A DNA stretch of 32,000 nt, taken from positions 120,001-152,000 of the forward strand of contig CP178758.1 in the NCBI GenBank assembly GCA_047651235.1. The letters are read 5' to 3'. The stretch comes from Candidatus Electrothrix yaqonensis. Its GTDB lineage: Bacteria > Desulfobacterota > Desulfobulbia > Desulfobulbales > Desulfobulbaceae. The notes below the pieces were generated by a model that had not been told where the DNA came from, searched no databases, and saw nothing but the letters and a program-made list of their open reading frames with translations. The first letter of the stretch is position 1. The number at the start of each line of letters is the position of its first letter. Made by a program: the position numbers and the translations under genes. This document shows positions 2,001 to 24,838 of the stretch, piece after piece.

Positions 2001-2024
2001 CCCCTACGGTATGGTGATTTACAA

Positions 2025-3965
2025 ATGAGCGATCAGATTGGAATCATTGGCGACAAGGCCAAGGTGGAAGGCGGTATTCATTTCCATAGTCACTCTGCCC
2101 CGGCCAAACTTCCCCATCTTCTTCCTCCGCAAGACACTGTTTTCCTGTACCGGGAGGACGAACTGGCTTGGCTGGATCAGCACCTGCACCCTGACAAGGT
2201 GGTTGCTGTGTGCGGACCCGGCGGCATGGGCAAGACCTCTCTGGCTGCCCGCGCCGTGCGTAGCCTGCCTCCTGACCGCTTCCCGGACGGCATTATCTTT
2301 CACACCTTTTACCATCAGGCCGAGACCACCAAGGCCCTCCAGACCATTGCCCATGCCCTGGGCCTCAAGGCTGAGGCCGATCTGGAGCAGCAGGTAGCTG
2401 CGGCCCTGGGCAGCAGGCAGGCCCTGCTGATTCTGGACGGGGCTGAGGAGGCGGAAGACCTCCAGGCGGTGCTGCCTCTGCGGGGGCGATGCGGGGTGTT
2501 GATCACCACCCGGAAGAAGAGCGATTGCGGGCCGCTGCGCCTGGACCTGCAAGCCCTGCCGGATGAGCAGTCTGAGGATGTGCTGCGGGCCTGGGGCGGG
2601 GAGGCCGGGGATCAGGACGCCATAGAGGAGATTGCCGAGCTGCTGGGTGGCTGGCCCGTGGCCCTGCGTCTGGCCGGGCATTATCTGCACAGCACCGGAG
2701 AGCCTGCAACAGACTACCTGCGCTGGTTGGAGGAGGAGCCGTTCAAGGAGCTGGGGGAGAGTGAGGAGCACCAGCGGGATAATGCGGCCCTACTGCTCAG
2801 GCGGAGCACGGCCCAGGTGGGAGAGGATGCCCGCCTTGTGCTGGGACTGGCAGGGTGTCTGGCCTTTGACCTGCTGTCTGCTGCGCCCATGACTGCCCTG
2901 CTGGAGGACGATACCCGCCGCTGCCGCAAGGCTGTGAACGAGCTGGTCAATTACGGCCTGCTGGAACGCCGGGGCGACCGCCTGCACATAGGTCATGCCT
3001 TGATCCATGAGTACGCAGCCCGGAACCTGCCCCTGAGCACAGAGGCTCTGGAGCGGGTGGCTGCTTATTATATTGATTGGTGCAAGGAACAGAGTGCTGC
3101 CGGTGTGCCGGGTTATGCCCGTATGGATGATGAACGGGCGCATTGCCTGCGGTTGATAAAGAGCTGTTTGGACAGGGAGCTGTGGGAGGCGGTGAAAGGG
3201 TTGGTCTGGGCAATCGACATCTACTTAGACCGACAGGGCTGGTGGACAGAGGAACTGGCTGCCTGGGAGATGGGGCTGACTGCGGCCCGGCAGGCTGGCG
3301 ACCGCAAGGGTGAACGCTGGTGCCTGACCAACCTAGGGTACACCAGTCGACAACGCGGAGACGATGATAAGGGCTTGGACTACTATCAGCAGAGTCTGAC
3401 TATAGCCCGTGAGCTGGGAGATAGAGAGGCTGAAGGAGAACTTTTGAACAACATGGGTGTAATCTTTCGGCAACAGGGCAAGTATGAGCTGGCCTGGGAG
3501 CAGTATCATCAAAGCCTCAGTATCAAGCGGAAGATCGGTGACCGTGAGGGGGAAGGAGTGACCCTGAATAATATCGGTGAGTTTTACCGAAACCAAGGCG
3601 AGTATGAACAAGCCCTGCAGTATTATAAGCAATGCTTACCTATCAGAAGGGAAACTGGAAGCAGTAGAGGAGAAAGTATAACTCTGACTAACATTGCCGC
3701 GATATACCGTGCACAAGGTAATCCTATCAAGGCATTGGAGTATCACGAACAAGCCTTGGCAATACGGCAGGAGCTTGGTGATAGGGCCAGAGAATCGCAG
3801 AGCCTCTATAACATCGGCCGCACCTATGAAGATATGGGCGACCTTACCCAAGCCGAGGAATACATTGCCCTGGCCGTGGAGATTGCAGAGGCTATGGGGC
3901 ATCCTTCCTTAGAGAAATACCGCAACTACCTGGAGCAGCTGCGGGCCAAGCGGCAGGCAGGGTAG
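2025..3965 (+). CDS. STAND NTPase of NB-ARC type with C-terminal TPR array (bacterial NLR-like protein)
   Basis: Walker A GPGGMGKTSLA, Walker B ALLILDGAEE, and a GxP-type motif LGGWPVALRLAG. About five 40-aa TPR units follow (LNNMGVIFRQQGKYELAWEQY..., LNNIGEFYRNQGEYEQALQYY...). I prefer the ATG at 2025 (MSDQIGIIGD...) over the track's GTG at 1998, which lies inside the palindrome. Confidence 0.9.
   Translation: MSDQIGIIGDKAKVEGGIHFHSHSAPAKLPHLLPPQDTVFLYREDELAWLDQHLHPDKVVAVCGPGGMGKTSLAARAVRSLPPDRFPDGIIFHTFYHQAETTKALQTIAHALGLKAEADLEQQVAAALGSRQALLILDGAEEAEDLQAVLPLRGRCGVLITTRKKSDCGPLRLDLQALPDEQSEDVLRAWGGEAGDQDAIEEIAELLGGWPVALRLAGHYLHSTGEPATDYLRWLEEEPFKELGESEEHQRDNAALLLRRSTAQVGEDARLVLGLAGCLAFDLLSAAPMTALLEDDTRRCRKAVNELVNYGLLERRGDRLHIGHALIHEYAARNLPLSTEALERVAAYYIDWCKEQSAAGVPGYARMDDERAHCLRLIKSCLDRELWEAVKGLVWAIDIYLDRQGWWTEELAAWEMGLTAARQAGDRKGERWCLTNLGYTSRQRGDDDKGLDYYQQSLTIARELGDREAEGELLNNMGVIFRQQGKYELAWEQYHQSLSIKRKIGDREGEGVTLNNIGEFYRNQGEYEQALQYYKQCLPIRRETGSSRGESITLTNIAAIYRAQGNPIKALEYHEQALAIRQELGDRARESQSLYNIGRTYEDMGDLTQAEEYIALAVEIAEAMGHPSLEKYRNYLEQLRAKRQAG
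2037..2084 (+). other. N-terminal copy of the shared 16-aa motif IGIIGDKAKVEGGIHF
   Basis: See 1905-1952. Confidence 0.85.
3310..3920 (+). repeat. Tandem TPR-coding repeats (about 120-nt period) inside the NLR gene
   Basis: A recurring pattern G(D/S)R.(G/A)E...L.N(I/M)G..Y..QG.Y..A(L/W).(Y/Q)(Y/H).Q(S/C/A)L.I appears about five times. Boundaries are approximate. Confidence 0.7.
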
Positions 3966-5152
3966 GGGGGTATGCAGCTCCTCATGGATGACCGCCTTAT
4001 CGCGGGGCGCAGCTTAACCGGACTGCGCAATGTTATCAGGGCAATCTCACTGCGCTGCCAGAGGCGCATTCGCGGCCCCCAAGTTCCGGTGCCCCGGCAG
4101 ACAAACAGGCTCATGCCCTTAACCAGATACTGACCGCTGAGAAAAGGATAGCGGCTGCGGACCAGATAACTGAACGGCCAGATCTGGCCGTTATGCGTAT
4201 GGCCGGAGAGCATGAGGCCGACGCCGTCAGCAGCGGCCTGTTCAACCAGCCAGGGCGTATGGGAAAGCAGAATGGTCGCTCCGGCAGGCCGATCAGTCAG
4301 GGCGCGGGTGAGGTCGGCTTTTCCCTGTCCGCTCCGGCGGCGGGATGAGGTCAGATCATCAATCCCGGCCAGCACCAGCCCGGGGGCAAGCTCTGTCCAT
4401 TCATTACTCAGCAGGCGGATGCCGGAAGCAGCCAGGATGCTTCCGGCGCGATCAGGGCGGCCGGGCCGAAAGCGGTCATGATTGCCCCGCACCGCGAACA
4501 CGCCCAGCGGAGCGGAGAGCTGCTGCAGGACCGGAGCCAGTGCCGCCGCATCGCTGCCCCGCTCAAACAGGTCGCCGACCAGAACGATGCAGTCCGGCTG
4601 CAGATTCTGTACCTGTCGGACGCGGGCCTTGAGCCAGTCCGCATTGATGAACATCTTACCGAGATGGAGGTCCGAAAGCACTACCACTGTGGTTCCGTCC
4701 AGATTCGCAGGCAGCCCGCTGACCGTGGTTGCATACTGCTCAACAACCGGTGGCTGCAGGCCCTGCACATGGGCGATCAGCACCAGGCCGATACCGCAGG
4801 CCAGGGTAGCTGAGCGGATGCGGAGCACAACCGCTTTAGGTAGAAGCAGCCCGAAACCTGTGAGCAGGTCGGCAGCGAATAAGGTCATTGCAAGCAGGAA
4901 CAGGCTGCCCATCCACTGTATTCCCGCAACTCCCGCAACTCCCGCAACTTCGAGCAGCTCTGTCAACAGACTGCCCTTCTGTCTACGAAACATCCGGCCC
5001 AGCACAAAGACCAGCCAGAGCAGCACGCCGATCCCCCATAACATCCTGCGCCTGATCCGGCTGCGGCACAGGGGCAGAGAAGCCAGCCGGACAAAAACAT
5101 ACAGGTGCATCACGGTCGTCAGAAAAGTCAGGACTGTACCGAAAAATGACAT
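3926..5152 (-). CDS. Membrane-anchored calcineurin-like metallophosphoesterase (YaeI-like)
   Basis: Several N-terminal hydrophobic helices, then the phosphoesterase motifs DLHLG, GDLFERG, GNHD and GHTH. Its 3-prime end overlaps the convergent NLR gene by 40 nt. Confidence 0.85.
   Translation of the reverse strand: MSFFGTVLTFLTTVMHLYVFVRLASLPLCRSRIRRRMLWGIGVLLWLVFVLGRMFRRQKGSLLTELLEVAGVAGVAGIQWMGSLFLLAMTLFAADLLTGFGLLLPKAVVLRIRSATLACGIGLVLIAHVQGLQPPVVEQYATTVSGLPANLDGTTVVVLSDLHLGKMFINADWLKARVRQVQNLQPDCIVLVGDLFERGSDAAALAPVLQQLSAPLGVFAVRGNHDRFRPGRPDRAGSILAASGIRLLSNEWTELAPGLVLAGIDDLTSSRRRSGQGKADLTRALTDRPAGATILLSHTPWLVEQAAADGVGLMLSGHTHNGQIWPFSYLVRSRYPFLSGQYLVKGMSLFVCRGTGTWGPRMRLWQRSEIALITLRSPVKLRPAIRRSSMRSCIPPYPACRLARSCSR
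4923..4949. repeat. Perfect 9-bp tandem repeat (cccgcaact x3), in frame within the phosphoesterase gene
   Basis: Read directly. It encodes VAGVAGVAG on the minus strand. Confidence 0.9.
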
Positions 5153-5564
5153 GGTAGCTCGTATTTGTTTTAATTATTTCAGGCTGTGCAGTGCATTTTC
5201 GCTCTGCGGAAGGGAGGGTCAAACTGTCAGGCTCATGAAATTTCGTGCCACATCCCTGCGGAAAAAGCAACAGGAAACACCGTTGCAGGATAAACCGTTG
5301 CTGTTCTTTATGTTGAATTTTTTGTACCGACTGGCTCTGCGGAGCAGCGGGAGAACATTCCCTGATGGCGTCAAAAAAATATTTTTCAGGCAGCCTGCAA
5401 AAAAGTACGGCTTATCTTGGCTGCGGAACAGGATATTATATTTTATTGAAGAAAAATGAAGACATTCTTACAAACATGAGTTTTTTTTCTGCTTGACAAT
5501 TGCCCGATTATGCTCTTCATTGTGCAATGAACAAAAAGACAAACAGGTCTAACTGAAAAGGTTA

Positions 5565-6068
5565 TTGACAGAGGAGCACCCAGGCCGCCCTGTCAGAAAT
5601 TCTGAATACGTAAAGCGTGTAAGTGAATCTGTGGAAGCAACCGGATACGAAAAGGATTTTTATTCATGGGCGATGCAGAATGCTGCTTTGCTCCGCGAAC
5701 GGAGGCTGCAGGAAATTGATACGGAGAATATAGCAGAAGAGCTTGAGGCGATGGGTAAAAAAGAAAGGAGAGAACTCATCAGCCGTCTGAGCGTCCTGAT
5801 TGCCCATCTGCTGAAATGGCCGTATCAGGCTGTAAGAAGATCGAGAAGCTGGAAAAATACTGTCTCAACGCAGCGTATCGATATCAACGAACTCTTTGAA
5901 GACAGTCCGAGCCTTCGGCATGGCCTCGGAGAGACAATAAAAAAGGCGTATAAAAAAGCGGTGCTGAAGGCGGAGGATGAAACCGGTATCGCCAAGGAGC
6001 AGTTTCCCGGAAATTGTCCGTTTTCAGCTGAAGAAATACTCAATGAAGATTTTTTCCCGCAGGAATAG
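5565..6068 (+). CDS. DUF29 family protein
   Basis: YEKDFYSWAMQNAALLRERRLQEIDTENIAEELEAMGKKERRELISRLSVLIAHLLKW matches the DUF29 pattern as I remember it. The start is uncertain: TTG at 5565 in the track, or possibly GTG at 5631. Confidence 0.7.
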   Translation: MTEEHPGRPVRNSEYVKRVSESVEATGYEKDFYSWAMQNAALLRERRLQEIDTENIAEELEAMGKKERRELISRLSVLIAHLLKWPYQAVRRSRSWKNTVSTQRIDINELFEDSPSLRHGLGETIKKAYKKAVLKAEDETGIAKEQFPGNCPFSAEEILNEDFFPQE

Positions 6069-6130
6069 CAGGGGGCAGGGGAGAAAAAAGGAGCCTTTTC
6101 TCCTGACGGTAACCTATCTAACGTATCGAC

Positions 6131-7297
6131 ATGCAATCACTTGAAAAGTACAGAGCGGACAACGCCCTCCCGGAAGGATTCAGGCTGCCCCTTTCAGAGG
6201 AAAAGGATGCCGAAGATTTTTTTGTCAATATCGGGCCGCAGCATCCCAGCACCCACGGCGTGCTGCGGGTGGTTGTCCGGCTGAACGGCGAGACCATTGT
6301 GGAGGCGGTGCCGCATCTCGGTTATATTCATCGCGGCATTGAAAAAATGGCCGAGAACCAGACCTATATCCAGAATATCCACCTGACGGACCGGCTTGAC
6401 TATGTCTCTGCCTTTTTCAACAACCTCTGTTTCTGCCTGGTTGTGGAACAGGCTCTGGATATCGGCGTGCCTGAGCGCGGCGAGTACATCCGGGTGATGA
6501 TCTGCGAGCTGCAGCGGCTGCAGTCGCATCTGCTCTGGTGGGGCGTCATGGGCATGGATCTGGGCGGTTTTACCCCGTTTCTCTACGGCTTCCGGGAACG
6601 GGAGATGATTACGGATATTTTTGAAGAACTCTGCGGCGCCCGCCTGACCATGAATTTCTTCCGGCCCGGCGGTTCTTCCTTTGACGCTCCGGACACCTTT
6701 ATTCCTAGGGTGAAAAACGTGATCAAGGTGATGTACAAAGCTCTTGATGAATATAACACCCTGCTCAGCGGCAATATTATTTTTCAGGAACGGACACGGG
6801 GGGTCGGCGTTCTTTCTCCTGAAACCGCGCTCTCCTACGGCTGCAGCGGCGCCGTGCTGCGCTCCACCGGTGTTTCCTATGACGTGCGCAGAAACGATCC
6901 CTATTCAATTTACGACCAGTTTGACTTTGATATTCCGACCGGCACCAGGGGCGACAGTCTGGCCCGTTATCAGGTGAAAATGGAGGAAATGGCGCAGTCG
7001 CTGCGCATTCTGGAGCAGGCTGTTGAACGATTTTCCGACGGACCGTACCGCAGTCAGCCCAAGGCGACCTATAAATTACCCAAGGGAAGTTATTACAGTC
7101 AGGTGGAAACGCCGAGAGGCCTGCTGGGTACCTACATCGTTTCAGATGGCGGCCCTAAACCGTATCGGGTCAAATTCCGGTCACCGAATTTTTCCAACCT
7201 CAGTGTGCTGAATGAAGCTGCAGCAGGGCATAAAATTGCCGATCTGATCAGCATTATGTCAAGCATGGATTTTGTTATCCCGGATATGGACAAGTAG
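6131..7297 (+). CDS. nuoD: NADH-quinone oxidoreductase subunit D
   Basis: NIGPQHPSTHGVLR, the LGYIHRGIEK motif, and a C-terminus ending DFVIPDMDK. Typical length and operon context. Confidence 0.95.
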   Translation: MQSLEKYRADNALPEGFRLPLSEEKDAEDFFVNIGPQHPSTHGVLRVVVRLNGETIVEAVPHLGYIHRGIEKMAENQTYIQNIHLTDRLDYVSAFFNNLCFCLVVEQALDIGVPERGEYIRVMICELQRLQSHLLWWGVMGMDLGGFTPFLYGFREREMITDIFEELCGARLTMNFFRPGGSSFDAPDTFIPRVKNVIKVMYKALDEYNTLLSGNIIFQERTRGVGVLSPETALSYGCSGAVLRSTGVSYDVRRNDPYSIYDQFDFDIPTGTRGDSLARYQVKMEEMAQSLRILEQAVERFSDGPYRSQPKATYKLPKGSYYSQVETPRGLLGTYIVSDGGPKPYRVKFRSPNFSNLSVLNEAAAGHKIADLISIMSSMDFVIPDMDK

Positions 7298-7312
7298 CCG
7301 GAGAAAGAGAAA

Positions 7313-8407
7313 ATGAATATGTCAGCAGCAGAAAATTTGTACCCTGTCCACAACAGCATCGGTAATGCCGTACGCGCCATGTTCCCGGAAAGCGCGTTTT
7401 TCATCAACTCGGTCCTGGCCATTGTCGGCCTGATGGCCGTGGTTTCGGCTCTGGCTGCCGTCCTAATCCTGATGGAGCGCAAGGTGGTTGCCCATTTTCA
7501 GGTGCGGCTCGGTCCTATGCGGGTCGGGTATCACGGCGTCCTGCAGCCCCTGGCCGACGGACTCAAGCTGATTTTCAAGGAGATTCTCAAGCCCAGAGGA
7601 GCAGACACCTTTATCTTTTACCTCGCCCCGATGCTGCCCCTGAGTGCGACCTTTCTTATCATGGCGGTTCTGCCCTTTGATCACCATCTGCAGGTAGCTG
7701 ATCCGGATGGAGGCGTGCTCTATGTGCTCGGTATTTCTGGCCTGACCGTGCTCGGTATTCTGCTGGCTGGCTGGTCGTCCAACAACAAGTATTCCCTGCT
7801 CGGCGCCATGCGTTCCGGGGCTCAGATGATTTCCTTTGAGGTCTCTGTCGCCCTGATCATGCTGCTCATTGTTATGGTCTCCGGTACGACCTCCCTGCGC
7901 GGCATCGTGCTTTCTCAGCAGGGCCTGATTTTCGACTGGTGGATATTCAAGATGCCCTTTCTCGGCATTGTCTCGTTTATTATGTACTTGGTCGCCTCCA
8001 CGGCCGAACTGAACCGCACTCCCTTTGATATCGCTGAAGCGGAATCCGAGCTGGCCGCAGGGTACCATACCGAGTACTCCGGCATGAGCTTTGCCATGTT
8101 TTTCTTTGCCGAATTCGTTAATATGTTTGTCTCGGCAGGACTGGCAACCACTTTTTTCCTCGGTGGTTTTCATCCGCCTCTCCTCGACATTGCCGCTGTT
8201 GACGGCCTGTTCAATGCTATACCGGGATTTATCTGGTTTTTCGGTAAGACATTTTTTATCATTTTTGTCTACATGTGGTTCCGCTGGACCTTCCCCCGCG
8301 TCAGGGTGGATCAGCTCATGTACCTGGAATGGAAAATGATGCTGCCCTTTAATCTGCTTCTCCTGATGCTGGGTGCCGTGTTTGTGATTCAGGGTTGGGC
8401 GGGGTAG
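7313..8407 (+). CDS. nuoH: NADH-quinone oxidoreductase subunit H
   Basis: MERKVVAHFQVRLGPMRVGYHGVLQPLADGLKL, and a polytopic membrane protein with AELNRTPFDIAEAESEL. Confidence 0.95.
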   Translation: MNMSAAENLYPVHNSIGNAVRAMFPESAFFINSVLAIVGLMAVVSALAAVLILMERKVVAHFQVRLGPMRVGYHGVLQPLADGLKLIFKEILKPRGADTFIFYLAPMLPLSATFLIMAVLPFDHHLQVADPDGGVLYVLGISGLTVLGILLAGWSSNNKYSLLGAMRSGAQMISFEVSVALIMLLIVMVSGTTSLRGIVLSQQGLIFDWWIFKMPFLGIVSFIMYLVASTAELNRTPFDIAEAESELAAGYHTEYSGMSFAMFFFAEFVNMFVSAGLATTFFLGGFHPPLLDIAAVDGLFNAIPGFIWFFGKTFFIIFVYMWFRWTFPRVRVDQLMYLEWKMMLPFNLLLLMLGAVFVIQGWAG

Positions 8408-8412
8408 GCAAC

Positions 8413-9846
8413 ATGCTGGACGCCGCCATCCGGGAGACCGCTCAAGATGATATTTTTTTGGGAGAGATAGAAGCGCAGGATAATATCCTGCTGAATTATT
8501 TTGCTGAAAAAATAGTCGTTGACGATTCACTGACCAGGCGGCTTGTCAGCTTTCAGGCCAATAAAAGCCGAACGTATTACAGGTGGTATAAATATAAAGA
8601 AGCATTTTCTGCTGATCTGATCGAATATCTTTTCCGGAAATACAATATAAAAAAAGGAAAAATACTTGATCCGTTTGCCGGTGCCGGAACTGCCTTATTT
8701 GCCTGTTCTGCTTTGGGGCATCCTGCTGAAGGGATTGAGGTTTTACCGGTTGGACAGAAGATCATAGAAGCAAATATTCTTGCCAGAGGTAATGGAAAAC
8801 AGAGTATTATCTCTGTTTTGGAAAGATGGGCTGCTGAACAGCCGTGGGAGAGGGAAGGTAAAAGGAAAAAAGTTGAGGTATTCCGGATAACAGACGGGGC
8901 ATATCCCAAAGAGACATATACAAAAATAGAAAGGTATTTAAACGATATCGAGGGAGAGTGTGCAGAAGCACAGGAAATCTTATTGTTTGCCCTGCTCTGT
9001 GTTGCTGAGTTAATAAGTTACACGAGAAAAGACGGGCAGTATCTCCGCTGGGATTATCGGGCTGGGAGAAAGATTGGCAAGACGGCTTTTGATAAAGGGA
9101 AAATTTTATCCTTTGATGAAGCTGTCGTAAAAAAGCTGAACGAAATAAAAAAAGATATTGAACTTGGCGACAGAAAAAATGATCTGTTTTCTTTTATGCA
9201 GAAAGATATACCGGCGGGCAGGCTCAGGCTGTACCGAGGCTCCTGTCTGGAGATTCTGCCTCAATTGGAAAGCAATACCTATACCGGGATAATTACGTCA
9301 CCACCTTACTGTAACCGCTATGATTATACGAGAACGTATGCTTTAGAACATGCATTGCTCGGTGTAAAAGAAACCGAGTTGTCGAATCTGCGGCAGGCTA
9401 TGTTAAGCTGTACAGTAGAAAATAAGGCCAAAGAACTTGTCGGACTGCATCATAAATGGAAAAGAGCAGTGGATATATGCGACAATCTTCCTTTATTGCA
9501 GCAGATACTGCAGTACCTGTACTATAAAAAAGAGAAAAAAGAATTGAATAATAACGGTATTGCCCGGATGGTGCGGGGGTATTTCTATGAAATGGCTTGT
9601 GTGATTCAGGAATGCCGCAGGGTGCTGGAAAAAGGCGGTATGATGTTCATGGTGAATGATAATGTCAGGTATGCCGGAGCAGCATTGTCCGTTGATACAA
9701 TTCTTTCAAAGATAGCAGAGGAAATAGGATTCCGGATAAACAATATTCTTGTTCTGCCCCAAGGCAAAGGAAACAGTTCGCAGCAGATGGGCCGACATGG
9801 ACGGGCAGTTTTGAGGAAATGCGTCTATGTATGGGAAAAAGGATGA
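8413..9846 (+). CDS. Site-specific DNA methyltransferase (amino-MTase; motif I before motif IV)
   Basis: Motif I ILDPFAGAGTALFA and motif IV IITSPPYCNRYDY. The N-terminal YRWYKYKEAFS is typical of this MTase group. I prefer the ATG at 8413, 5 nt after the nuoH stop. The track's TTG at 8395 would overlap nuoH. Confidence 0.9.
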   Translation: MLDAAIRETAQDDIFLGEIEAQDNILLNYFAEKIVVDDSLTRRLVSFQANKSRTYYRWYKYKEAFSADLIEYLFRKYNIKKGKILDPFAGAGTALFACSALGHPAEGIEVLPVGQKIIEANILARGNGKQSIISVLERWAAEQPWEREGKRKKVEVFRITDGAYPKETYTKIERYLNDIEGECAEAQEILLFALLCVAELISYTRKDGQYLRWDYRAGRKIGKTAFDKGKILSFDEAVVKKLNEIKKDIELGDRKNDLFSFMQKDIPAGRLRLYRGSCLEILPQLESNTYTGIITSPPYCNRYDYTRTYALEHALLGVKETELSNLRQAMLSCTVENKAKELVGLHHKWKRAVDICDNLPLLQQILQYLYYKKEKKELNNNGIARMVRGYFYEMACVIQECRRVLEKGGMMFMVNDNVRYAGAALSVDTILSKIAEEIGFRINNILVLPQGKGNSSQQMGRHGRAVLRKCVYVWEKG

Positions 9847-9849
9847 TAC

Positions 9850-10809
9850 ATGCCGTTCAGGATTCATCTGAAGTCATACAAAGACCTCATTACACCCTAT
9901 GAAAAAACGCGGGCCGGATTTATTGCTCTGGCACTTGAGAAAAACAGAAAAGCAACACCTTTTATTGAGGAAGCCAAGGTGCTTAAGGCGTTGGCTTTAA
10001 AGGCGGAAATACCAAGAAAGTTGTTATTGATTCATGAAATAGAAAATTCATTACTGACAGCTGCAGGGATTTCGGAAAAAGCAAAGAATCATCTGCAGGA
10101 GGAAGACAAGAAGGAGGCAATCAAAGGATTAATCGATAACTTTCTCGAACCTGCGGGCAGCTCTTTTATTGAAGAACTGGTTTATCGTTTCCTGCTGACA
10201 AGAGGAGATGCTCTCGGCGGCAGCATCCGAAATCTCTCCGGCGCACTGGGTGAATGGCGGTTTACCAGAATATTCATTTCCACCTGTTCGGTAGGCGGCA
10301 TGACTGTTGAATATCTTGATGCAAAGAGCAGGAAATGGATGCGGGCAGATACTGAACCGGAAATAGAGAAAAGGATTAAGGGGCTGCATTGGCTTTCTTG
10401 TGGAAATCCTCGTACGTTAATTTATAATTTAACCGTACCCACAGTGCAGAAAAATGTTGATCTCTGCCTGTTTGATTGTTCTCCCGATGAAATTATATTC
10501 GGCAAAAACAAAGAATCTGTTCACTTCAAATCGAAAAAATATCTTGCACTGGGCGAGCTGAAAGGAGGTATTGATCCGGCAGGAGCGGATGAACATTGGA
10601 AAACAGCGAACTCTGCTCTTGAGAGAATCAGGAAGGCTTTTTCCGGACAAAACTGCAGGCCGAGAACATTTTTTGTCGGTGCTGCGATAGAACATGCTAT
10701 GGCTGAAGAAATATTTCAGCAGCTGGACAGCGGCAGGTTATCAAATGCAGCAAACCTGACCGATGAGAAGCAGGTCGTTTCACTGTGTGATTGGCTCATA
10801 AAATTATAG
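9850..10809 (+). CDS. Putative type II restriction endonuclease partner (PD-(D/E)XK-like)
   Basis: Starts 3 nt after the MTase stop. Candidate catalytic pattern VDLCLFD ... LGELKGG (D...E-x-K). The family was not identified. The call rests mainly on context. Confidence 0.55.
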   Translation: MPFRIHLKSYKDLITPYEKTRAGFIALALEKNRKATPFIEEAKVLKALALKAEIPRKLLLIHEIENSLLTAAGISEKAKNHLQEEDKKEAIKGLIDNFLEPAGSSFIEELVYRFLLTRGDALGGSIRNLSGALGEWRFTRIFISTCSVGGMTVEYLDAKSRKWMRADTEPEIEKRIKGLHWLSCGNPRTLIYNLTVPTVQKNVDLCLFDCSPDEIIFGKNKESVHFKSKKYLALGELKGGIDPAGADEHWKTANSALERIRKAFSGQNCRPRTFFVGAAIEHAMAEEIFQQLDSGRLSNAANLTDEKQVVSLCDWLIKL

Positions 10810-10822
10810 TAAAGAAAAAAAT

Positions 10823-10969
10823 ATGCCCTACAGTGACTTTACGCTCAAACGGGTAAAAACTGAGTTTGAACTGATTGAAGAGAAAGGTATTTTTTTTGCG
10901 ATCAGCCTAGCCGAGCTGAGTGACTTGCTGTGTTGCATCGGGAGGACTTTACTCTTGAGATTATTATGA
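10823..10969 (+). pseudogene. Short ORF or decayed gene remnant at the right edge of the R-M insert
   Basis: The ATG at 10823 gives MPYSDFTLKRVKTEFELIEEKGIFFAISLAELSDLL..., which stops after 48 aa. Coding-like sequence continues in another frame (...TTELSREKIVLLQDEK, ending about 11025), which suggests a frameshifted remnant. No homology was confirmed. Confidence 0.25.
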
Positions 10970-11038
10970 AAACAACAGAATTGTCGCGGGAAAAGATTGT
11001 TCTGCTGCAAGACGAAAAATAAGTTTTGAACTGACCCC

Positions 11039-11533
11039 ATGAAAGAAACCGTCCCCAAGGAAAGCCTGCTGGAATACAGCGGCCGCTACCTGTACAAAGT
11101 CTTTACCGGATTCTATTCTCTGATGCAGGGAATGGATATTACCATAAAATATTTCCTTAATCCCAAGACTGTCATTACCCAGCAGTATCCGGAAAACCGG
11201 GATACTCTGGAGATGTTTGATCGTTTTCGCGGGCCGCTGCACATGCCGCATGACGAAAACGGCAACAATGCCTGCACGGCCTGCGGCATCTGTGAAAAGT
11301 CCTGTCCCAACGGCACGATTTCCGTCCTGCCGACCAGGGATATCAGCGGCAGCAAGGTGCTCGGCAAATACATCTACCGGAGCGGCCAATGCGCCTTCTG
11401 CGGTCTCTGCGTGGAAGCCTGTCCGTTCGGGGCTATTACCATGTCCGGGGAATTTGAGCTGACCGTGTACGACCGGAACGAACTGACCTGGGTGCTCAAC
11501 AAACCTCAAGACGAAACACAGGGAGAATGCTGA
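11039..11533 (+). CDS. nuoI: NADH-quinone oxidoreductase subunit I (2x[4Fe-4S] ferredoxin-type)
   Basis: CTACGICEKSCP and CAFCGLCVEACP cluster motifs, with typical size and position. Confidence 0.95.
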   Translation: MKETVPKESLLEYSGRYLYKVFTGFYSLMQGMDITIKYFLNPKTVITQQYPENRDTLEMFDRFRGPLHMPHDENGNNACTACGICEKSCPNGTISVLPTRDISGSKVLGKYIYRSGQCAFCGLCVEACPFGAITMSGEFELTVYDRNELTWVLNKPQDETQGEC

Positions 11534-12063
11534 TGAGTGATGTTCTCTTTTATCTGCTGGCTGCGCTGCTGGTGACCCTGTCATGCTTGGTGGTGCGTCT
11601 GCCCAATATGCTGCACAGCGCCATCGCCCTGATCGGTTCCTTCTTTATCACGGCAGCTCTGTACATCATGCTGCAGATCGAGATGCTGGCCCTGGCCCAG
11701 ATCATGCTGTATATCGGCGGCATTGTTGTTTTTATGCTGATCATTATTCTGCTGACCACCGGCCTTGGAGTAGACAACAAACTAAGTCAGATCAGCGCGG
11801 GCAAATGGCTCAGCAAGGGACTGCTGACCGGAACGCTGTTCACCGGTCTGCTCTATTTTTTCACCGAAAACGCTTCATCTCTGCTTGAGGCCTCAAGTCA
11901 TCGGGCCGCGCCGGTTACCATCGACCAGATCGGTTTCCGTCTGCTGTCCCCGGAAAACGGCTTTATCGTGCCGTTTGAGGTGGTGTCGCTGCTGCTCCTT
12001 GCCGCTCTGGTCGGCGCAGTGGTGCTTGCCCGTAAAGATGCTGATAAGGAGGACCAGTCATGA
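11527..12063 (+). CDS. nuoJ: NADH-quinone oxidoreductase subunit J
   Basis: Hydrophobic 178-aa protein overlapping the nuoI stop. FEVVSLLLLAALVGAVVLARK is typical of NuoJ. The start is either 11527 or 11533. Confidence 0.9.
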   Translation: MLMSDVLFYLLAALLVTLSCLVVRLPNMLHSAIALIGSFFITAALYIMLQIEMLALAQIMLYIGGIVVFMLIIILLTTGLGVDNKLSQISAGKWLSKGLLTGTLFTGLLYFFTENASSLLEASSHRAAPVTIDQIGFRLLSPENGFIVPFEVVSLLLLAALVGAVVLARKDADKEDQS

Positions 12064-12365
12064 CCCTGTCCCATTGTATCGCCCTGTCGCTGATCCTCTG
12101 CGGGATCGGGCTGTTCGGGATGCTGACCCGGCGGAACCTGTTGGGAATTCTCCTATCGGTGGAGATTATTCTCAACGGGGCCAACATCAACTTTGCCGCC
12201 TTTGCTCATTTCAAAGCGGCAGACCCGGTTGCCGGTGCCGTGTTTCCGATCTTTGTTATGGCGGTCTCGGCCTGTGAAATAGCGGTGGCTCTGGCAATTA
12301 TCCTTTCCATGTACCGTCATAAAAAACAGCTTGACGTGTATCGGCTGGAGGAACTCAATGGCTGA
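12060..12365 (+). CDS. nuoK: NADH-quinone oxidoreductase subunit K
   Basis: 101-aa protein with three TM helices and the LLSVEIILNGANINF motif. ATGA overlap with nuoJ. Confidence 0.9.
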   Translation: MTLSHCIALSLILCGIGLFGMLTRRNLLGILLSVEIILNGANINFAAFAHFKAADPVAGAVFPIFVMAVSACEIAVALAIILSMYRHKKQLDVYRLEELNG

Positions 12366-14310
12366 TTATATTTTTTTGAACAGTTACCTGATCCTGCTCT
12401 GTCCGCTGCTCAGCTTTGTCCTGATCGGGCTGAAATATCTCCGTGCGGACAATCAATTTGTCGGTAAGCTCGCCATCACCCTGTCCGGCATTTCATGCGG
12501 CTATGCCTTGCTCACCGCCCTGACCTATCTGATTGTGGTGCTGGGCAATGGGCAGCCGTACCCGGACAAGCTGGCCTTTGATGTGGGCTGGCTCAACTTC
12601 GCTCCTGACCTGACCGCCAATATGGGGATCTATTTGGACCCCATCTCAGTAATGATGCTGGTGGTGGTCACGGTGATCTCCCTGCTGGTTAATATCTATT
12701 CAGTCGGTTATATGAAGGGCGATCCTTCCTTTAACCGTTTTTTTTCTCTGCTGGCCCTGTTTTCCTTTTCCATGCTGGGCTTGGTGATTTCCAGCAATAT
12801 CCTCCAGATGTTTGTCTTCTGGGAACTGGTCGGCGTTTCGTCGTATTCTCTGATCGGTTTCTGGTACGAAAAGCCCTCTGCTGTAGCGGCTTCGAAAAAA
12901 GCCTTTATCATGACCCGTTTTGCCGACGCCTTTTTCCTCCTGGGTATTCTGCTGGTCAGCTTCCAGAGCGGCAGTTTCAGTTTCCAGACCCTGAACAGCC
13001 CGGAGACCGCAGCCCTGCTTAATAAAAAATTTCTTTTTGCAGGCATGTCAGTCAATATGCTGACCTTGGCCACCTTGCTCATCTTCTGCGGCGGCTGGGG
13101 AAAATCAGCCATGTTTCCCCTCCATGTCTGGCTGCCTGATGCAATGGAAGGCCCGACCCCGGTTTCCTCTATTATTCACTCGGCAACTATGGTTGTAGCC
13201 GGTGTCTACCTGACTGCCCGGATGTTTCCCCTGTTCGCTGCTGCGGAAAGCACCCTGTTCGTGATTCAGTGTATCGGTGCCTTCACCGCTCTGTTTGCCG
13301 CTATCATTGCCATCACTCAGATGGACATCAAGCGGATTCTGGCCTTTTCCACCCTGTCGCAGTTGGGCTATATGATTTTTTCATTGGGAGCCGCAAAGGT
13401 CTGTGCAGAGGCCGTGCATCACGGGCCTGACGTAAATCCGCTGGGCTATTCAGCCTCCATGTACCACGTCTTTACCCACGCCTTTTTTAAATGCATGCTC
13501 TTCCTCGGTGCAGGCTCCATCATCCATGTTGTCCACAGCAACGACATCATGAAGATGGGCGGGCTGAAATCGTTGATGCCCAGAACCTACTGGTCACTGC
13601 TGGCCGCCTGTCTGGCCATTGCCGGAGTCTTTCCGTTCAGCGGTTTCTGGTCCAAAGACGCCATTCTGCTGTCTGCCCTGCAGTCCGGCCATACCGTCAC
13701 CTTTCTGGTCGGTTTGGTCACCGGCGGGCTGACTGCCTTTTATATGTTCCGTTTTTTCTTCCTTATCTTTCATGGAGAGGCACGCTCCGAACTGCATGAG
13801 GTGCATGAAGACCCTTGGATGACTTGGCCGATCGTCGTTCTGACCGTACCGACCATTTTTGCCGGATTGCTGGAGCATTCTTTTATGGCACAGGTTGTCC
13901 CGCCCCATCTCGGCGAAGCCGGACATTTTGCCCATCCGGGCTGGCTACCGTGGCTGGCTACCCTTGCTGCGGTCCTTGGTATCGGCGGCGCATGGCTGCT
14001 ATACGGCCAGGGAAAGACGGAAGCTGCCGCACGACTGAAGAATATCTTCGGGCCAGCGTATACGGTGGTATCCAACAAGTTCTACATGGATGAAGTGTGG
14101 TTGTTCATTACCCATAAGATCATCTTTGCCTATATCGCTGCGCCGATCAAATGGTTTGACCGCCATATTGTGGACGGCACCATGAACCTCTGCGGCTGGC
14201 TGCTGCATGTCGGCGGTAAGGGAGTACGGCTTGCCCAGAACGGGCAGTTGCAGTTTTACCTCGGGGCTACGGTGATCGGCTTTATTGCGCTGCTGTTTTT
14301 GGGGCAATAA
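12358..14310 (+). CDS. nuoL: NADH-quinone oxidoreductase subunit L
   Basis: Antiporter-like subunit with WELVGVSSYSLIGFWY, SAMFPLHVWLPDAMEGPTPVSSIIHSATMV and a long C-terminal helix region. I prefer the ATG at 12358, which overlaps the nuoK stop (ATGGCTGA), over the track's TTG at 12331. Confidence 0.95.
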   Translation: MADYIFLNSYLILLCPLLSFVLIGLKYLRADNQFVGKLAITLSGISCGYALLTALTYLIVVLGNGQPYPDKLAFDVGWLNFAPDLTANMGIYLDPISVMMLVVVTVISLLVNIYSVGYMKGDPSFNRFFSLLALFSFSMLGLVISSNILQMFVFWELVGVSSYSLIGFWYEKPSAVAASKKAFIMTRFADAFFLLGILLVSFQSGSFSFQTLNSPETAALLNKKFLFAGMSVNMLTLATLLIFCGGWGKSAMFPLHVWLPDAMEGPTPVSSIIHSATMVVAGVYLTARMFPLFAAAESTLFVIQCIGAFTALFAAIIAITQMDIKRILAFSTLSQLGYMIFSLGAAKVCAEAVHHGPDVNPLGYSASMYHVFTHAFFKCMLFLGAGSIIHVVHSNDIMKMGGLKSLMPRTYWSLLAACLAIAGVFPFSGFWSKDAILLSALQSGHTVTFLVGLVTGGLTAFYMFRFFFLIFHGEARSELHEVHEDPWMTWPIVVLTVPTIFAGLLEHSFMAQVVPPHLGEAGHFAHPGWLPWLATLAAVLGIGGAWLLYGQGKTEAAARLKNIFGPAYTVVSNKFYMDEVWLFITHKIIFAYIAAPIKWFDRHIVDGTMNLCGWLLHVGGKGVRLAQNGQLQFYLGATVIGFIALLFLGQ

Positions 14311-14326
14311 AGCCTGATGCGATCAA

Positions 14327-14578
14327 ATGTTTATACATGTTGAGCAGGCAAGACACATCAGCGGTTATAAGGTATGGCTGTCCTTTAATGACGGTTTGGA
14401 AGGCGAAATAGACTTATCTTCCGAATTAGACGGTGAATTATTTGAACCGTTGAAAGAGATCGAATTTTTTAAATCGTTTATCGTAGAAGGTCATACGCTT
14501 TCATGGAGTAACGGTGCTGATTTCGCCCCGGAATTTCTGCGTGAGCGCATAGTTGAATCCGGCTTGATTGATGCGTAA
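14327..14578 (+). CDS. DUF2442 domain protein (orphan, no DUF4160 partner)
   Basis: V..A....GYKVWLSFNDGLEGEIDL...FEPL....FF..F.V.G.TLSW.NGADFAPEFL matches the DUF2442 pattern. It is a paralog of 15438-15698. Confidence 0.8.
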   Translation: MFIHVEQARHISGYKVWLSFNDGLEGEIDLSSELDGELFEPLKEIEFFKSFIVEGHTLSWSNGADFAPEFLRERIVESGLIDA

Positions 14579-14627
14579 CTGTCGCGTCCCGTGTGATAAT
14601 ATACCTGCGAGAAGTTGGCCCTTGTTT

Positions 14628-14708
14628 CTTGCCCAGAACGGACAGCTGCAGTTTTATCTTGGAGCCACGGTTGTCGGATTTATCGTGCTGTTGTTCTTTG
14701 GGAAATGA
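14628..14708 (+). pseudogene. Detached, diverged copy of the last 26 codons plus stop of nuoL
   Basis: Encodes LAQNGQLQFYLGATVVGFIVLLFFGK*, against LAQNGQLQFYLGATVIGFIALLFLGQ* at 14230-14310. My hand alignment finds about 16 mismatches in 81 nt, mostly at synonymous sites. Confidence 0.85.
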
Positions 14709-14953
14709 CGAATAAGGATGCTACTATGGGGGCGGCCTATGAACTCTACCGCAAAGGTAAAGCGATCGGCTGTGTCATAGACCCTCTCACGAACCCGGAG
14801 CAGGAAATTTCGCCAACGTGCGAACCTGATCTCAAAGAGTTCATATCGGCTATAAAGGTCAAGGATGCCAAAGTTAAAAATAGCATGATTTGCTACAAAT
14901 ACAAAACCCTAAACTTCAAACAAGATAGTAATAGTATAAATAATGACAAATAG
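14705..14953 (+). CDS. Hypothetical small protein (82 aa)
   Basis: The ATG at 14705 overlaps the TGA of the nuoL-end fragment (ATGA coupling). Product is MTNKDATMGAAYELYRKGKAIGCVIDPLTNPEQ... No family recognised, and the RBS is weak. Confidence 0.3.
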   Translation: MTNKDATMGAAYELYRKGKAIGCVIDPLTNPEQEISPTCEPDLKEFISAIKVKDAKVKNSMICYKYKTLNFKQDSNSINNDK

Positions 14954-15029
14954 AGTTGAGTTACAGAAGAACGAAGATTGGGCTTTTAGAAGAAATAGAA
15001 CGTTTAGAGCAAACTAAGGAAAATCTGCT

Positions 15030-15128
15030 GTGGAATGGGCTGGCGTCATAAACAATCCTCCGCTGAAGGATCTGCCGTTTAAGGCAGTGATCTGTTCCAC
15101 ATCGAAATGCGAAATAATAACTCGGTGA
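15030..15128 (+). pseudogene. Diverged copy of the first 18 codons of the Uma2-like gene, then unrelated sequence to a stop
   Basis: VEWAGVINNPPLKDLPFK (GTG start) compares with MEWASVINNPLLKDLPFK at 15698-15751. There are 6 mismatches in the 53 nt after the start position. Confidence 0.7.
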
Positions 15129-15166
15129 TGTATATCAGAGATAATCGGCAACCTTCTGAATAGTTG

Positions 15167-15433
15167 ATGCCTACTATTTCAATGTTTTATGGAATTATTG
15201 TTCGGATGTTTTGTGCGCCGTCCGAACATAATCCCCCGCATATTCACGCATATTACCAAGATGATAAAGCTGTTGTGGACATACAGAAGTGCAAAATTAC
15301 AGAAGGCCAACTTCCTCGGAAGCAGAAAAGGTTGATTTTGGCATGGGTAGAAATCCATCAGGACGAGTTACTTGCAAATTGGAGCTTAGCGTCAAAAGGT
15401 GAATTACCCTTTAAAATTGATCCGTTAAAGTAG
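15167..15433 (+). CDS. DUF4160 domain protein
   Basis: MPTISMFYGIIVRMFCAPSEHNPPHIHAYYQDDKAVVDI is the hallmark DUF4160 N-terminus. I prefer the ATG at 15167 over the TTG at 15164. Confidence 0.85.
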   Translation: MPTISMFYGIIVRMFCAPSEHNPPHIHAYYQDDKAVVDIQKCKITEGQLPRKQKRLILAWVEIHQDELLANWSLASKGELPFKIDPLK

Positions 15434-15437
15434 GATT

Positions 15438-15698
15438 ATGTATTTATCTGTTAAAAATGTTGTGCCGCTCGCAGATTATAAATTGCTTCTGACGTTTGAA
15501 AATGAAGAAGTCAAAATATTTGATCTTACTCCTTACTTGGCAACAGGACAATTTTCAGAACTTCGGGATATTGCACTATTCAACTCTGTCTCCGTCTCTT
15601 TCGATTCGATAGAATGGGCTAATCATTTAGATTTAGACCCAGAGTTTTTGTACAAGAAAAGCACAACAGTCAATAATCCACAGAACATTACAAACTGA
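15438..15698 (+). CDS. DUF2442 domain protein (partner of DUF4160)
   Basis: Lies 4 nt after the DUF4160 stop. V.PL.DYKLLLTFENEEVKIFDL.PYL..G.F..L....LF.SV.V.F.SIEW.N.LDLDPEFLY. Its stop overlaps the next ATG (TGATG). Confidence 0.85.
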   Translation: MYLSVKNVVPLADYKLLLTFENEEVKIFDLTPYLATGQFSELRDIALFNSVSVSFDSIEWANHLDLDPEFLYKKSTTVNNPQNITN

Positions 15699-16153
15699 TG
15701 GAATGGGCCAGCGTCATCAATAATCCTCTGCTGAAGGATCTGCCGTTCAAGATCGAGCTGAACAAATGGGGAAAAATCCTCATGAGTCCGGCGAGCAACA
15801 ATCACGGCAGACTTCAGTACGAGGTGGGCAGGCGCATTGATCGGCATAAGGGCAGCGGCAAGGTCATCATGGAGTGCTCCATTCAGACCAGTGACGGAGT
15901 CAAGGTTGCTGATGTCGCCTGGGCATCGGATGCGTTTATTGAGAAATTCGGTTACAGCACACCGTACAGGAAAGCTCCTGAAATCTGCGTTGAAATAACC
16001 TCTCCTTCCAACTCAAAAGGTGAGATAGAAGAAAAGGTACAGCTTTATCTGGCAAAGGGAGCGCATGAAGTCTGGGTGGTGAACGAGGACGGCGATACCT
16101 TCTATCATAGTCATGAAGGACAAATTTCCGGCAGCAGAGAAATTAAGGATTAA
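15698..16153 (+). CDS. Uma2 (DUF820) family PD-(D/E)XK nuclease-like protein, short form
   Basis: KIELNKWGKILMSPASNNHG, VADVAW and PEICVEITSPSNSKGEIEEKVQLYLAKGAHEVWVV match the Uma2 core pattern (D...E-x-x-S...K). Confidence 0.75.
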   Translation: MEWASVINNPLLKDLPFKIELNKWGKILMSPASNNHGRLQYEVGRRIDRHKGSGKVIMECSIQTSDGVKVADVAWASDAFIEKFGYSTPYRKAPEICVEITSPSNSKGEIEEKVQLYLAKGAHEVWVVNEDGDTFYHSHEGQISGSREIKD

Positions 16154-16207
16154 TCAAAAAATGAACAACCTCAGCCGCAACGGCATAAACAGCAACGGAG
16201 TATATAT

Positions 16208-17719
16208 ATGAACGGACCATTTCTGCTCACCATGATCTGGGTCGTCCCTTTTATCACCGCCTTGGCCTGTCTGCCCGGCCAACCTGATGACCATCGGCGG
16301 ACCAAGAGGATCTCGCTGATCGGGAATTCGATCAACCTTCTGCTGGTCATTAGCCTGACCCTTCGGTTCATCAGCGCATCAGCGGACAGTCCGGTTGCAG
16401 AGGGCGCAGCAGCCAGCCTGTTCCATTTTACCTATAAGGTCGGCTGGTTCCAGATGATGAACATTGAGTACAACATCGGGGTGGATGCCATTTCCGTGCT
16501 CATGATGCTGCTCACCGCCATTGTTATCTTCTGCGGCGTTCTGGCCAGCTGGGGCGTGGAGAATCAGGCCAAGGAGTTCTTCATTCTCCTGAACGTTCTG
16601 GTAGCCGGAGTCTATGGGGTTTTTATCTCCATTGACCTGTTCACCTTTTTCCTGTTCTACGAGATCGCGGTGCTGCCTATGTACCTGCTCATCGGTCTCT
16701 GGGGCACCGGCAAAAAGGAATACTCAGCCATGAAGCTGACCCTGATGCTGGTGGCCGGTTCCGCCTTTATCCTGGCCGGGATTTTGGCCCTGTATTTTGA
16801 ATCCGGCCTGAACAGCTTTGATCTGCAGCAGCTCTCGCAAGTCCACTTCTCCGAATCTTTCCAGCACTGGGCCTTCCCGGTTATCTTTCTCGGATTCGGG
16901 GTGCTGGGTGCAATTTTCCCCTTTCACACTTGGTCGCCGGACGGCCATGCTTCAGCTCCCACAGCGGTTTCCATGCTCCATGCCGGGGTTCTGATGAAAC
17001 TGGGCGGCTACGGCTGCCTGCGGGTGGGCATGTATCTCCTGCCGGAAGGAGCGCAGATGTGGATGGGATTTTTCCTGATCCTGGTGACCATCAACGTGCT
17101 TTACGGCGCATTCGGGGCGATCCGCCAGACTGACCTGAAATATATCACCGCCTATTCCTCAGTTTCCCACTGCGGACTGGTGCTGTTCGGCTTCACCGCA
17201 TTGACCTTTACCGGCATCAAAGGCGGCGTACTCCAGATGATCTCTCACGGCCTGATGACCGCCCTGTTTTTCTGCCTGATCGGCATGATCTATGGTAGAA
17301 CCCATACCCGGACAGTGAGCGAGATGGGCGGCCTGATGAAGGTGATGCCCTTTCTCTCCGTGGCCTATGTGATTGTCGGGCTGGCCGGACTCGGGCTGCC
17401 CGGTCTGTCTGGTTTTGTGGCTGAGGCCAATGTCTTTGTCGGCTCCTTCAGCAATCCGAACACCATCAACCGGGTCTGCACGGTGCTGGCCGTGCTCTCC
17501 ATTGTGGTGACCGCAGTCTATGTGCTGCGGGCAGTCAACGGGCTGGTCAACGGACCGATAAAAGATCAGTTCAGGACGCTGACAGACGCATCCTTTGTGG
17601 AAAAAATTCCGGTGACGATTCTGCTCGTCTGCCTCTTCGGCATGGGCATCCTGCCCGGCTGGATCGTTGAGCTGGTCAACAATGCTGTTCACCCCATTTA
17701 CAACAACCTGATGCGATAG
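16208..17719 (+). CDS. nuoM: NADH-quinone oxidoreductase subunit M
   Basis: Antiporter-like subunit with FYEIAVLPMYLLIGLWG, FPFHTWSPDGHASAPTAVSMLHAGVLMKLGGYG and AYSSVSHCG. Confidence 0.95.
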   Translation: MNGPFLLTMIWVVPFITALACLPGQPDDHRRTKRISLIGNSINLLLVISLTLRFISASADSPVAEGAAASLFHFTYKVGWFQMMNIEYNIGVDAISVLMMLLTAIVIFCGVLASWGVENQAKEFFILLNVLVAGVYGVFISIDLFTFFLFYEIAVLPMYLLIGLWGTGKKEYSAMKLTLMLVAGSAFILAGILALYFESGLNSFDLQQLSQVHFSESFQHWAFPVIFLGFGVLGAIFPFHTWSPDGHASAPTAVSMLHAGVLMKLGGYGCLRVGMYLLPEGAQMWMGFFLILVTINVLYGAFGAIRQTDLKYITAYSSVSHCGLVLFGFTALTFTGIKGGVLQMISHGLMTALFFCLIGMIYGRTHTRTVSEMGGLMKVMPFLSVAYVIVGLAGLGLPGLSGFVAEANVFVGSFSNPNTINRVCTVLAVLSIVVTAVYVLRAVNGLVNGPIKDQFRTLTDASFVEKIPVTILLVCLFGMGILPGWIVELVNNAVHPIYNNLMR

Positions 17720-17725
17720 ACTCCG

Positions 17726-24758: not shown

Positions 24759-24838
24759 AGCAATTTCTTATTTCAAGGATATCAGCTGATAACCGGGACT
24801 GTTGAACCGTATAACCTCTGCGTTACGTAACAAAAAAA

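Follow-up and report, generated by a model that had tools for sequence, protein, structure and literature searches.

The segment at positions 8408–11038 of the window (the whole stretch of 32,000 nucleotides analyzed here), which lies between nuoH and nuoI in the complex I (nuo) operon of the cable bacterium Candidatus Electrothrix sp. YB6, is very probably a horizontally acquired type IIP restriction-modification (R-M) module of the AvaI/BsoBI family, inserted exactly between the nuoH stop codon and the point where an older accessory gene begins. It consists of a DNA methyltransferase (MTase, M) gene followed by a restriction endonuclease (REase, R) gene, and at least two further lineages resembling cable bacteria (L082; L083/L084/L085) carry the same cassette at this junction. 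An R-M cassette between nuoH and nuoI had been proposed previously from the sequence alone (hereafter the original prediction), and this was borne out by the identification of a BsoBI-family endonuclease and an adjoining MTase; the spacings given there (5, 3, and 229 nt) and all coordinates proved exact when the junctions were read again. An assembly artefact or chimera was ruled out, since an independent Logan assembly (L001) matched the whole region at 100% identity and three more independent assemblies (L083, L084, and L085) showed the same architecture as the window.

Methyltransferase and endonuclease of the cassette

By homology, the REase is assigned to the AvaI/BsoBI family of type IIP restriction endonucleases. 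It matched the Pfam family Endonuc-BsobI (PF09194) at profile positions 2–313 of 313 (3.6e-141) and the BsoBI structure chain PDB 1DC1 with residues 2–318 against 6–322 (4.9e-110), and the NCBI annotation of the protein also names the AvaI/BsoBI family. In the HMMER alignment, D204, E236, K238, and H249 lined up with D212, E240, K242, and H253 of BsoBI, which are reportedly its catalytic residues in the structure paper. A profile search of both proteins had been recommended as a check, and it placed the REase in the BsoBI family and the MTase in N6_N4_Mtase; a non-nuclease function of the second gene, which had been named as a possible objection, is contradicted by its match to a BsoBI-family nuclease over the full length. 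More than 5,600 homologues of the REase were present in the collection searched. The two nearest (90 and 85% amino acid identity) were both located at the same nuoH–nuoI junction. Only three plasmid records, each with less than 50% identity, and no phage records were found among the homologues, so no vehicle was seen.

The MTase contains an AdoMet-binding motif I (DPFAGAGT, aa 86–93) and a catalytic motif IV (SPPY, aa 296–299). Both motifs were invariant in four homologues and aligned to PDB 2ZIE, and the Pfam N6_N4_Mtase match (1.1e-11) fell into two stretches because motif I precedes motif IV in this protein. At the amino acid level the MTase was 88% identical to that of L083 and 73% identical to those of non-cable cassettes. 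The ATG at 8413 is, by comparison with L083, the conserved start of the MTase; a TTG start at 8395, overlapping nuoH, was rejected because its frame is not kept in L083, where 4 nt (TCAC) separate the nuoH stop codon from the MTase ATG. The predicted target of the module, CYCGRG, is assumed from the literature on AvaI and BsoBI, and N4-cytosine is likewise our assumption for the type of methylation carried out by the predicted MTase. Methylation of this type was reportedly described in the 1996 paper on the cloning of AvaI and BsoBI.

The ratio of nonsynonymous to synonymous divergence (dN/dS) was 0.14 for the MTase and 0.11–0.20 for the REase (0.10–0.20 overall among the three carriers), and judged from these values both M and R are under purifying selection.

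The original prediction described the cassette as AT-richer than its surroundings from the GC contents of single lines (0.33 at 8581–8640 and 0.73 at 7501–7560). These hand counts were exact on recount, and the difference also holds for whole genes (GC 0.43–0.44 vs. 0.53–0.56 in the nuo genes). The GC content and the GC content at third codon positions (GC3) were 0.427 and 0.427 for the MTase gene and 0.438 and 0.425 for the REase gene, and the 229-nt gap before nuoI showed a GC content of 0.397; nuoD, H, I, J, K, L, M, and N all showed GC contents of 0.53–0.56 and GC3 values of 0.65–0.74. The GC content of 8408–11038 was the third lowest of 588 segments of equal length across the 32 kb. Homologous non-cable cassettes showed GC3 values of 0.27–0.31, and the intermediate GC3 of the cassette (0.43) suggests partial amelioration. 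No direct or inverted repeats of at least 16 nt bracketing 8408–11038 were found in the repeat search, and local alignments of the junction flanks for a target duplication gave only chance matches of 7–13 nt.

The nuoH–nuoI junction in related genomes

The claim that nuoI normally adjoins nuoH was supported by 64 out of 73 related loci, all from outside the cable bacteria, in which the estimated gap ranged from -72 to +194 nt with a median of about 2 nt. In the other nine loci (L063, L069, L056, L049, L048, L061, L051, L026, and L046) a NuoI-like gene was present approximately 7 kb downstream of nuoH. All six of these with titles listed were metagenome-assembled genomes (MAGs) of Muribaculaceae or Porphyromonadaceae, so that the genes seem to be arranged differently in this clade.

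Among the relatives compared at the junction, as had been advised, it was empty in L002, L003, L091, and L094 and occupied by other genes in five further loci (Table 1), and an R-M pair of native composition that is universal in relatives was thus not found. This survey applies to the loci listed in Table 1 rather than to every named cable-bacterium genome. In Candidatus Electronema sp. JM (L171), where gene X and a gene for an Rpn-family nuclease occupy the junction, the spacers are 3–4 nt long, and the Rpn stop codon overlaps the start codon of nuoI (ATGA). The L082 junction contains, in addition to the REase gene and gene X remnants, an 86-aa open reading frame (ORF) and a PIN-domain gene that are a probable VapBC-type pair. 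The 72-aa ORF of L083 was 76% identical to aa 206–268 of the Rpn protein and matched the NCBIfam Rpn family (1.1e-5). Neither gene X nor the small junction ORFs of L090, L092, and L093 could be assigned to a family by searches of Pfam and NCBIfam.

A decayed ORF had been noted in the 229-nt gap upstream of nuoI, and the gap was shown to hold remnants of two genes, X and Rpn. Since the gap matches residues of both, the M–R pair landed between nuoH and gene X. Taken together with the occupants of the other loci, the junction is probably a long-standing accessory slot in cable bacteria. Its first occupants were probably gene X and the Rpn-family nuclease gene, which are still found there in Candidatus Electronema sp. 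JM. The M–R pair probably came later, upstream of gene X, after which both older genes decayed into the 229-nt gap, and since then the cassette has probably passed between lineages at this junction. The slot is conserved and repeatedly refilled.

The gene X family comprises more than 7,000 homologues and has no Pfam or NCBIfam model. Its hosts include Electronema, Magnetomorum, Thioploca, Beggiatoa-like bacteria, and cyanobacteria, which are multicellular, filamentous, or otherwise large, and a D99...E120-A-K122 motif is invariant in the family. A structure model of the gene X protein (pLDDT, the model confidence score, 90) gave weak matches to restriction-endonuclease-like folds (Foldseek E 5e-4 to 2e-3), which point weakly to a possible PD-(D/E)XK-like fold.

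Cassette and flanking nuo genes are incongruent in their divergence, and for this reason the cassette, from the nuoH stop codon on, has probably moved laterally among lineages into this junction. For the window and L082, synonymous divergence (dS) was 0.49 for the REase gene and 0.51 for nuoIJK. Between the window and L083, dS was 0.35–0.45 for the cassette compared to 1.1–1.9 for the nuo flanks. The ratio of window–L083 dS to window–L082 dS was 0.71 (bootstrap interval 0.52–0.98) for the REase gene and 2.93 (2.10–4.32) for nuoIJK. The identity between the window and L083 rises stepwise at the cassette edges, and the 3′ part of the L083 nuoH was found to be nearest to the empty-site lineages L002 and L090 and not to the window. 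The nuoH stop codon is TAG in both carriers for which the left junction was available (the window and L083) and TGA in 7 out of 7 non-carriers aligned; TAG is followed by 5 nt and ATG in the window and by 4 nt and ATG in L083.

No raised identity between the window and L083, as expected for a co-transferred flank, was detectable in nuoH or nuoI beside the cassette. Because neither such a flank nor a repeat or recombinase is visible, any crossover must have been confined to within approximately 10–20 nt of the cassette ends, i.e., to GGGTTGGGC of nuoH on one side and the opening 17 nt of nuoI on the other. The latter were identical across most relatives.

Table 1. Features of the nuo region in the window and state of the nuoH–nuoI junction in related loci
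Locus	Feature	Position	Strand	Remarks
Window	nuoD	6131–7297	+	Upstream of nuoH
Window	nuoH	7313–8407	+	Upstream flank; Pfam NADHdh 9.8e-112; TAG stop at 8405–8407
Window	Spacer GCAAC, 5 nt	8408–8412	+	nuoH stop to MTase ATG
Window	DNA methyltransferase (MTase, M), 477 aa	8413–9846	+	TGA stop at 9844–9846; Pfam N6_N4_Mtase
Window	Endonuclease (REase, R), 319 aa	9850–10809	+	Pfam Endonuc-BsobI; ATG 3 nt past MTase stop
Window	Gap before nuoI, 229 nt	10810–11038	+	Holds gene X and Rpn remnants
Window	Gene X remnant	10823–10933	+	Corresponds to aa 3–39 of the 201-aa protein; broken frame; tblastn with Electronema gene X 2.8e-8
Window	Remnant of Rpn-family nuclease gene (C-terminal HTH)	10927–11022	+	Corresponds to aa 238–268; tblastn 4.6e-6
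Window	nuoI	11039–11533	+	Downstream flank; NCBIfam NuoI 1.1e-28; Fer4 families; followed by nuoJ, nuoK, and nuoL (+)
Window	DUF2442	14327–14578	nuo strand	nuoL|nuoM insert
Window	DUF4160	15164–15433	nuo strand	nuoL|nuoM insert
Window	DUF2442 (second)	15438–15698	nuo strand	nuoL|nuoM insert
Window	Uma2	15698–16153	nuo strand	nuoL|nuoM insert
L002 (Electrothrix MAG)	Junction empty, 59 nt			
L091	Junction empty, ~123 nt			
L094	Junction empty, ~70 nt			
L003 (Desulfobulbaceae MAG)	Junction empty			Operon nuoA-BC-D-H-I-J-K-L-M-N whole, uninterrupted
L090	84-aa ORF			
L092	83-aa ORF			
L093	164-aa ORF and 61-aa ORF			
L095	Intact 201-aa gene X	2959–3564		Starts 1 nt past nuoH stop; order nuoH-X-nuoI
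L171 (Ca. Electronema sp. JM)	Intact gene X and 274-aa Rpn-family nuclease gene (PDDEXK_2 and HTH_Rpn_C)	10001–10606 (gene X)		Order nuoH-X-Rpn-nuoI
L083/L084/L085	Carriers of the cassette			Order nuoH-M-R-72-aa ORF-nuoI
L082	Carrier of the cassette			R, gene X remnants, 86-aa ORF, PIN-domain gene, nuoI

Expression, activity and alternative explanations

Because the spacers upstream of M and R are only 5 and 3 nt, the intergenic space is too small for a promoter of the pair's own, and read-through from the nuo promoter is its most likely mode of expression. A consensus scan gave no sigma-70-like site on the + strand at 7314–8751, which is weak evidence. No convincing terminator was found in or after the cassette, including hairpins with a proper T-tract after nuoH or the REase gene, and no Rfam elements were found in 5100–21300. 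With read-through, approximately 2.6 kb of foreign mRNA would precede nuoI–N, and in an operon for the proton-pumping complex I the dosage of a presumably active R-M pair, and thus of defence genes, would follow respiratory gene expression. No Shine-Dalgarno-like sequence was present upstream of nuoI in any lineage (window 11020–11038; L002, L082, L083, L090, and L091).

In the proposed mode of action, M would be translated ahead of R, which would favour methylation before restriction. The MTase would shield CYCGRG sites of the host, and the endonuclease would cut unmethylated incoming DNA. On loss of the module the endonuclease would cut the host chromosome, and precise loss of the cassette would thus be costly.

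The window contained 9 CYCGRG sites compared to 33.8 ± 5.0 expected, i.e., a 3–4-fold depletion, and there were no sites inside the cassette. Avoidance of CYCGRG as a specific sign of enzyme activity was rejected on account of an equal depletion in relatives without the cassette at this junction and of the depletion of other palindromes. Other degenerate 6-bp palindromes depleted in the window were CRCGYG (1 vs. 9.6 expected), GYTARC (1 vs. 9.2), and GRGCYC (6 vs. 31), which suggests exposure to several other R-M specificities.

Several points weigh against the reading of the segment as a laterally acquired and exchanged, active module that is read through from the nuo promoter. No flanking repeat, integrase, or transposase accounts for the entry of the cassette. 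The exchange between lineages is deduced from three carriers, two of which are short metagenomic contigs, and from Nei-Gojobori dS values compared between genes of different composition. The ratio of observed to expected CYCGRG sites was also approximately 0.3 in L002 and L003, which are without the cassette at this junction, and 3 out of 31 control palindromes were depleted more than CYCGRG. Promoter-like hexamers are present inside the REase gene at 10401–10428 (10/12 matches) and 10472–10499, and these could drive nuoI–N independently; a promoter in the 3′ part of nuoH, or one of a non-sigma-70 type, may exist as well. As regards origin, it is hardly credible that M and R are ancestral components of the nuo operon of this lineage and were never inserted. 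The tight spacing and co-orientation would fit such an origin, as would the conservation of the pair by purifying selection in three lineages, but the pair is absent at the junction in L002, L003, L090, L091, L093, L094, L095, and L171, its GC3 is 0.43 compared to 0.65–0.74 in nuo, and its nearest non-cable relatives (73–80% amino acid identity) are found in unrelated contexts beside Abi_C and another R-M pair. A single entry in a common ancestor, followed by vertical descent only and by precise loss in the empty-site lineages with no lateral exchange, is unlikely. It would explain the left junction common to the window and L083 and the agreement of REase and nuo dS between the window and L082, but is opposed by the much lower dS of the cassette than of nuo between the window and L083, by the bootstrap intervals of the divergence ratio, which do not overlap, and by the grouping of the L083 nuoH with empty-site lineages; moreover, repeated clean loss of an active R-M module would cost the host. 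Insertion followed by lateral exchange is the origin that we prefer.

Two further alternatives concern the function of the pair. A dead endonuclease, with the MTase retained as an orphan, e.g., as an epigenetic regulator, is quite improbable: orphan MTases are common and site avoidance is not specific to carriers, but the REase is of full length with conserved catalytic residues, and its dN/dS across the three lineages is low like that of the MTase. Also unlikely is an independent transcription unit, in which a promoter in the 3′ end of nuoH would drive the cassette and an internal promoter would restart transcription of nuoI–N. AT-rich inserts often create promoters, and the two hexamer sites in the REase gene would be candidates for the internal one; however, no sigma-70-like match was found on the + strand (7314–8750), neither nuoH nor the REase gene is followed by a terminator-like hairpin with a proper T-tract, the spacers measure only 5 and 3 nt, and in L171 the older occupants overlap the nuoI start, as is typical of genes in one translationally coupled unit. 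Read-through of a functional pair from the nuo promoter is accordingly kept as the preferred reading.

Other inserts of the operon and comparison with known systems

The operon contains at least three other accessory inserts, and the slots are common to Electrothrix and Electronema with different contents. The insert between nuoL and nuoM (14311–16207) has a GC content of 0.43, and its genes are co-oriented with nuo (Table 1). The nuoL 3′ end recurs as a 79-nt direct repeat on either side of the first DUF2442 gene (14230–14308 and 14628–14706, 81% identity), and the Uma2 5′ end as a 53-nt repeat on either side of the DUF4160–DUF2442 pair (15031–15083 and 15699–15751, 89% identity); these repeats look like the result of an insertion of toxin-antitoxin-like genes with long duplication of the target. 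In L002 the same slot (6856–10371) contains a YfjL_C-like gene, a Uma2 gene with 86% DNA identity to that of the window, a 199-aa ORF, and an alkaline phosphatase gene, and in L171 (14806–17120) a 352-aa ORF, a HicB-like gene, a PIN-like gene, and a 49-aa ORF. Approximately 70 nt directly upstream of nuoM are conserved between the window and L002.

A second R-M pair was found at 19273–20656, 113 nt downstream of nuoN and on the same strand, with GC contents of 0.45–0.47. It comprises a 301-aa N6_N4 MTase (2.7e-35) with a DPPF motif and an endonuclease of the BamHI/BglII family (Pfam BglII 3.2e-7; PDB BamHI 1BAM 5.2e-8). A CYCGRG restriction barrier, if active, together with a BamHI-like one, bears on making cable bacteria genetically tractable.

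Upstream of nuoD, nuoA and nuoBC were not present in YB6 (5153–6130), L002 (255–1105), or L090 (1–5400). YB6 instead contains a DUF29 gene (5565–6068) and a divergent metallophosphoesterase gene at this position. In L003 nuoA-nuoBC-nuoD are contiguous (7025–8634), and in L171 a gene with an RF-1 domain (ArfB-like) is located between nuoBC and nuoD (5588–7718). The nuo operon thus seems to be split at a third slot (nuoC|D) in Electrothrix lineages. The nearest NuoH relatives outside Desulfobulbaceae, among the matches listed, were from Fibrobacter and Bacteroidota (50–57% amino acid identity), which hints that this complex I operon, which lacks EFG, may itself have been acquired from the Fibrobacter/Bacteroidota group. 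Further upstream, the window contains a gene (1998–3965) for a STAND/NLR-like NB-ARC/NACHT ATPase of 655 aa that has TPR repeats at its C terminus, which may be another defence-type gene. A small non-ribosomal-peptide-like cluster on the - strand (23175–29880) encodes an 882-aa condensation/PP-binding/thioesterase protein, an asparagine synthase, an AMP-binding enzyme, and an NAD synthase-like protein.

A broader and tentative interpretation, which taken as a whole is rather doubtful, would see in the complex I operon of cable bacteria a landing pad that works without a recombinase and has three fixed slots (nuoC|D, nuoH|I, and nuoL|M) and the 3′ end. Promoterless, co-oriented cassettes (nuclease-like, toxin-antitoxin, and R-M) would be captured at stop/start boundaries, read through and translationally coupled, layered on decayed cassettes, and exchanged between species as units. 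If true, addiction and defence genes of multicellular filamentous bacteria would be following a strategy of operon hitchhiking, in which the R-M pair would be the newest layer and would lock the operon against deletion. The colonisation of operons by selfish modules, the tolerance of such operons to polarity, and the movement of R-M alleles between related species can all be studied in cable bacteria as a natural system.

The original prediction also considered an R-M module embedded in this operon to be unusual. This stands in so far as no report of R-M within a nuo operon was found at the title and abstract level, and the paper on the YB6 genome (PMC12093952) did not mention nuo, restriction, or toxins; it has to be qualified, since there is a precedent at the Neisseria pheS/pheT locus and since the cassette also occurs in the other lineages described above. 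Integron cassettes are similar in expression logic only, as promoterless co-oriented genes stacked at a fixed site with presumed read-through. Unlike in integrons, no integrase was present among the ORFs annotated at 5.1–21.3 kb and no bracketing repeat was found, though no search was aimed at attC.

Insertion of R-M systems accompanied by a long duplication of the target was described by Furuta, Abe and Kobayashi 2010 (PMC2853133). The nuoH|nuoI cassette resembles these cases in having no linked integrase or transposase, a foreign GC content, and presence or absence among relatives, but differs from them in that no flanking duplication of at least 16 nt surrounds it; duplications of that type instead flank the toxin-antitoxin-like genes in the nuoL|nuoM insert (79 nt, 81%; 53 nt, 89%).

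Compared to the AvaI/BsoBI family, the REase (319 aa) could be aligned end to end with BsoBI (323 aa) with the catalytic D/E/K/H kept, and the MTase gene is located directly upstream of the REase gene as in the non-cable cassettes L086 and L170. However, the non-cable relatives are free modules in defence-type neighbourhoods (with approximately 130 nt of upstream intergenic sequence in L086), whereas here the module begins 5 nt after a respiratory gene.

The closest likeness in gene context is to the pheS/pheT locus of Neisseria meningitidis, which harbors variable type II R-M systems (NmeDI and others) and for which recombinational exchange was proposed (PMC7973814, PMC3082526). In both cases an R-M pair is located between the two genes of a core housekeeping pair and the content varies between strains. 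The host, the operon, and the enzyme family are different, the nuoH|nuoI slot also holds or held non-R-M nuclease-like genes, and besides two additional slots the nuo operon has another R-M pair, which is located at its end. The enzymes of the cassette are thus ordinary and already named to family by NCBI, and it is their context in the nuo operon that is uncommon.

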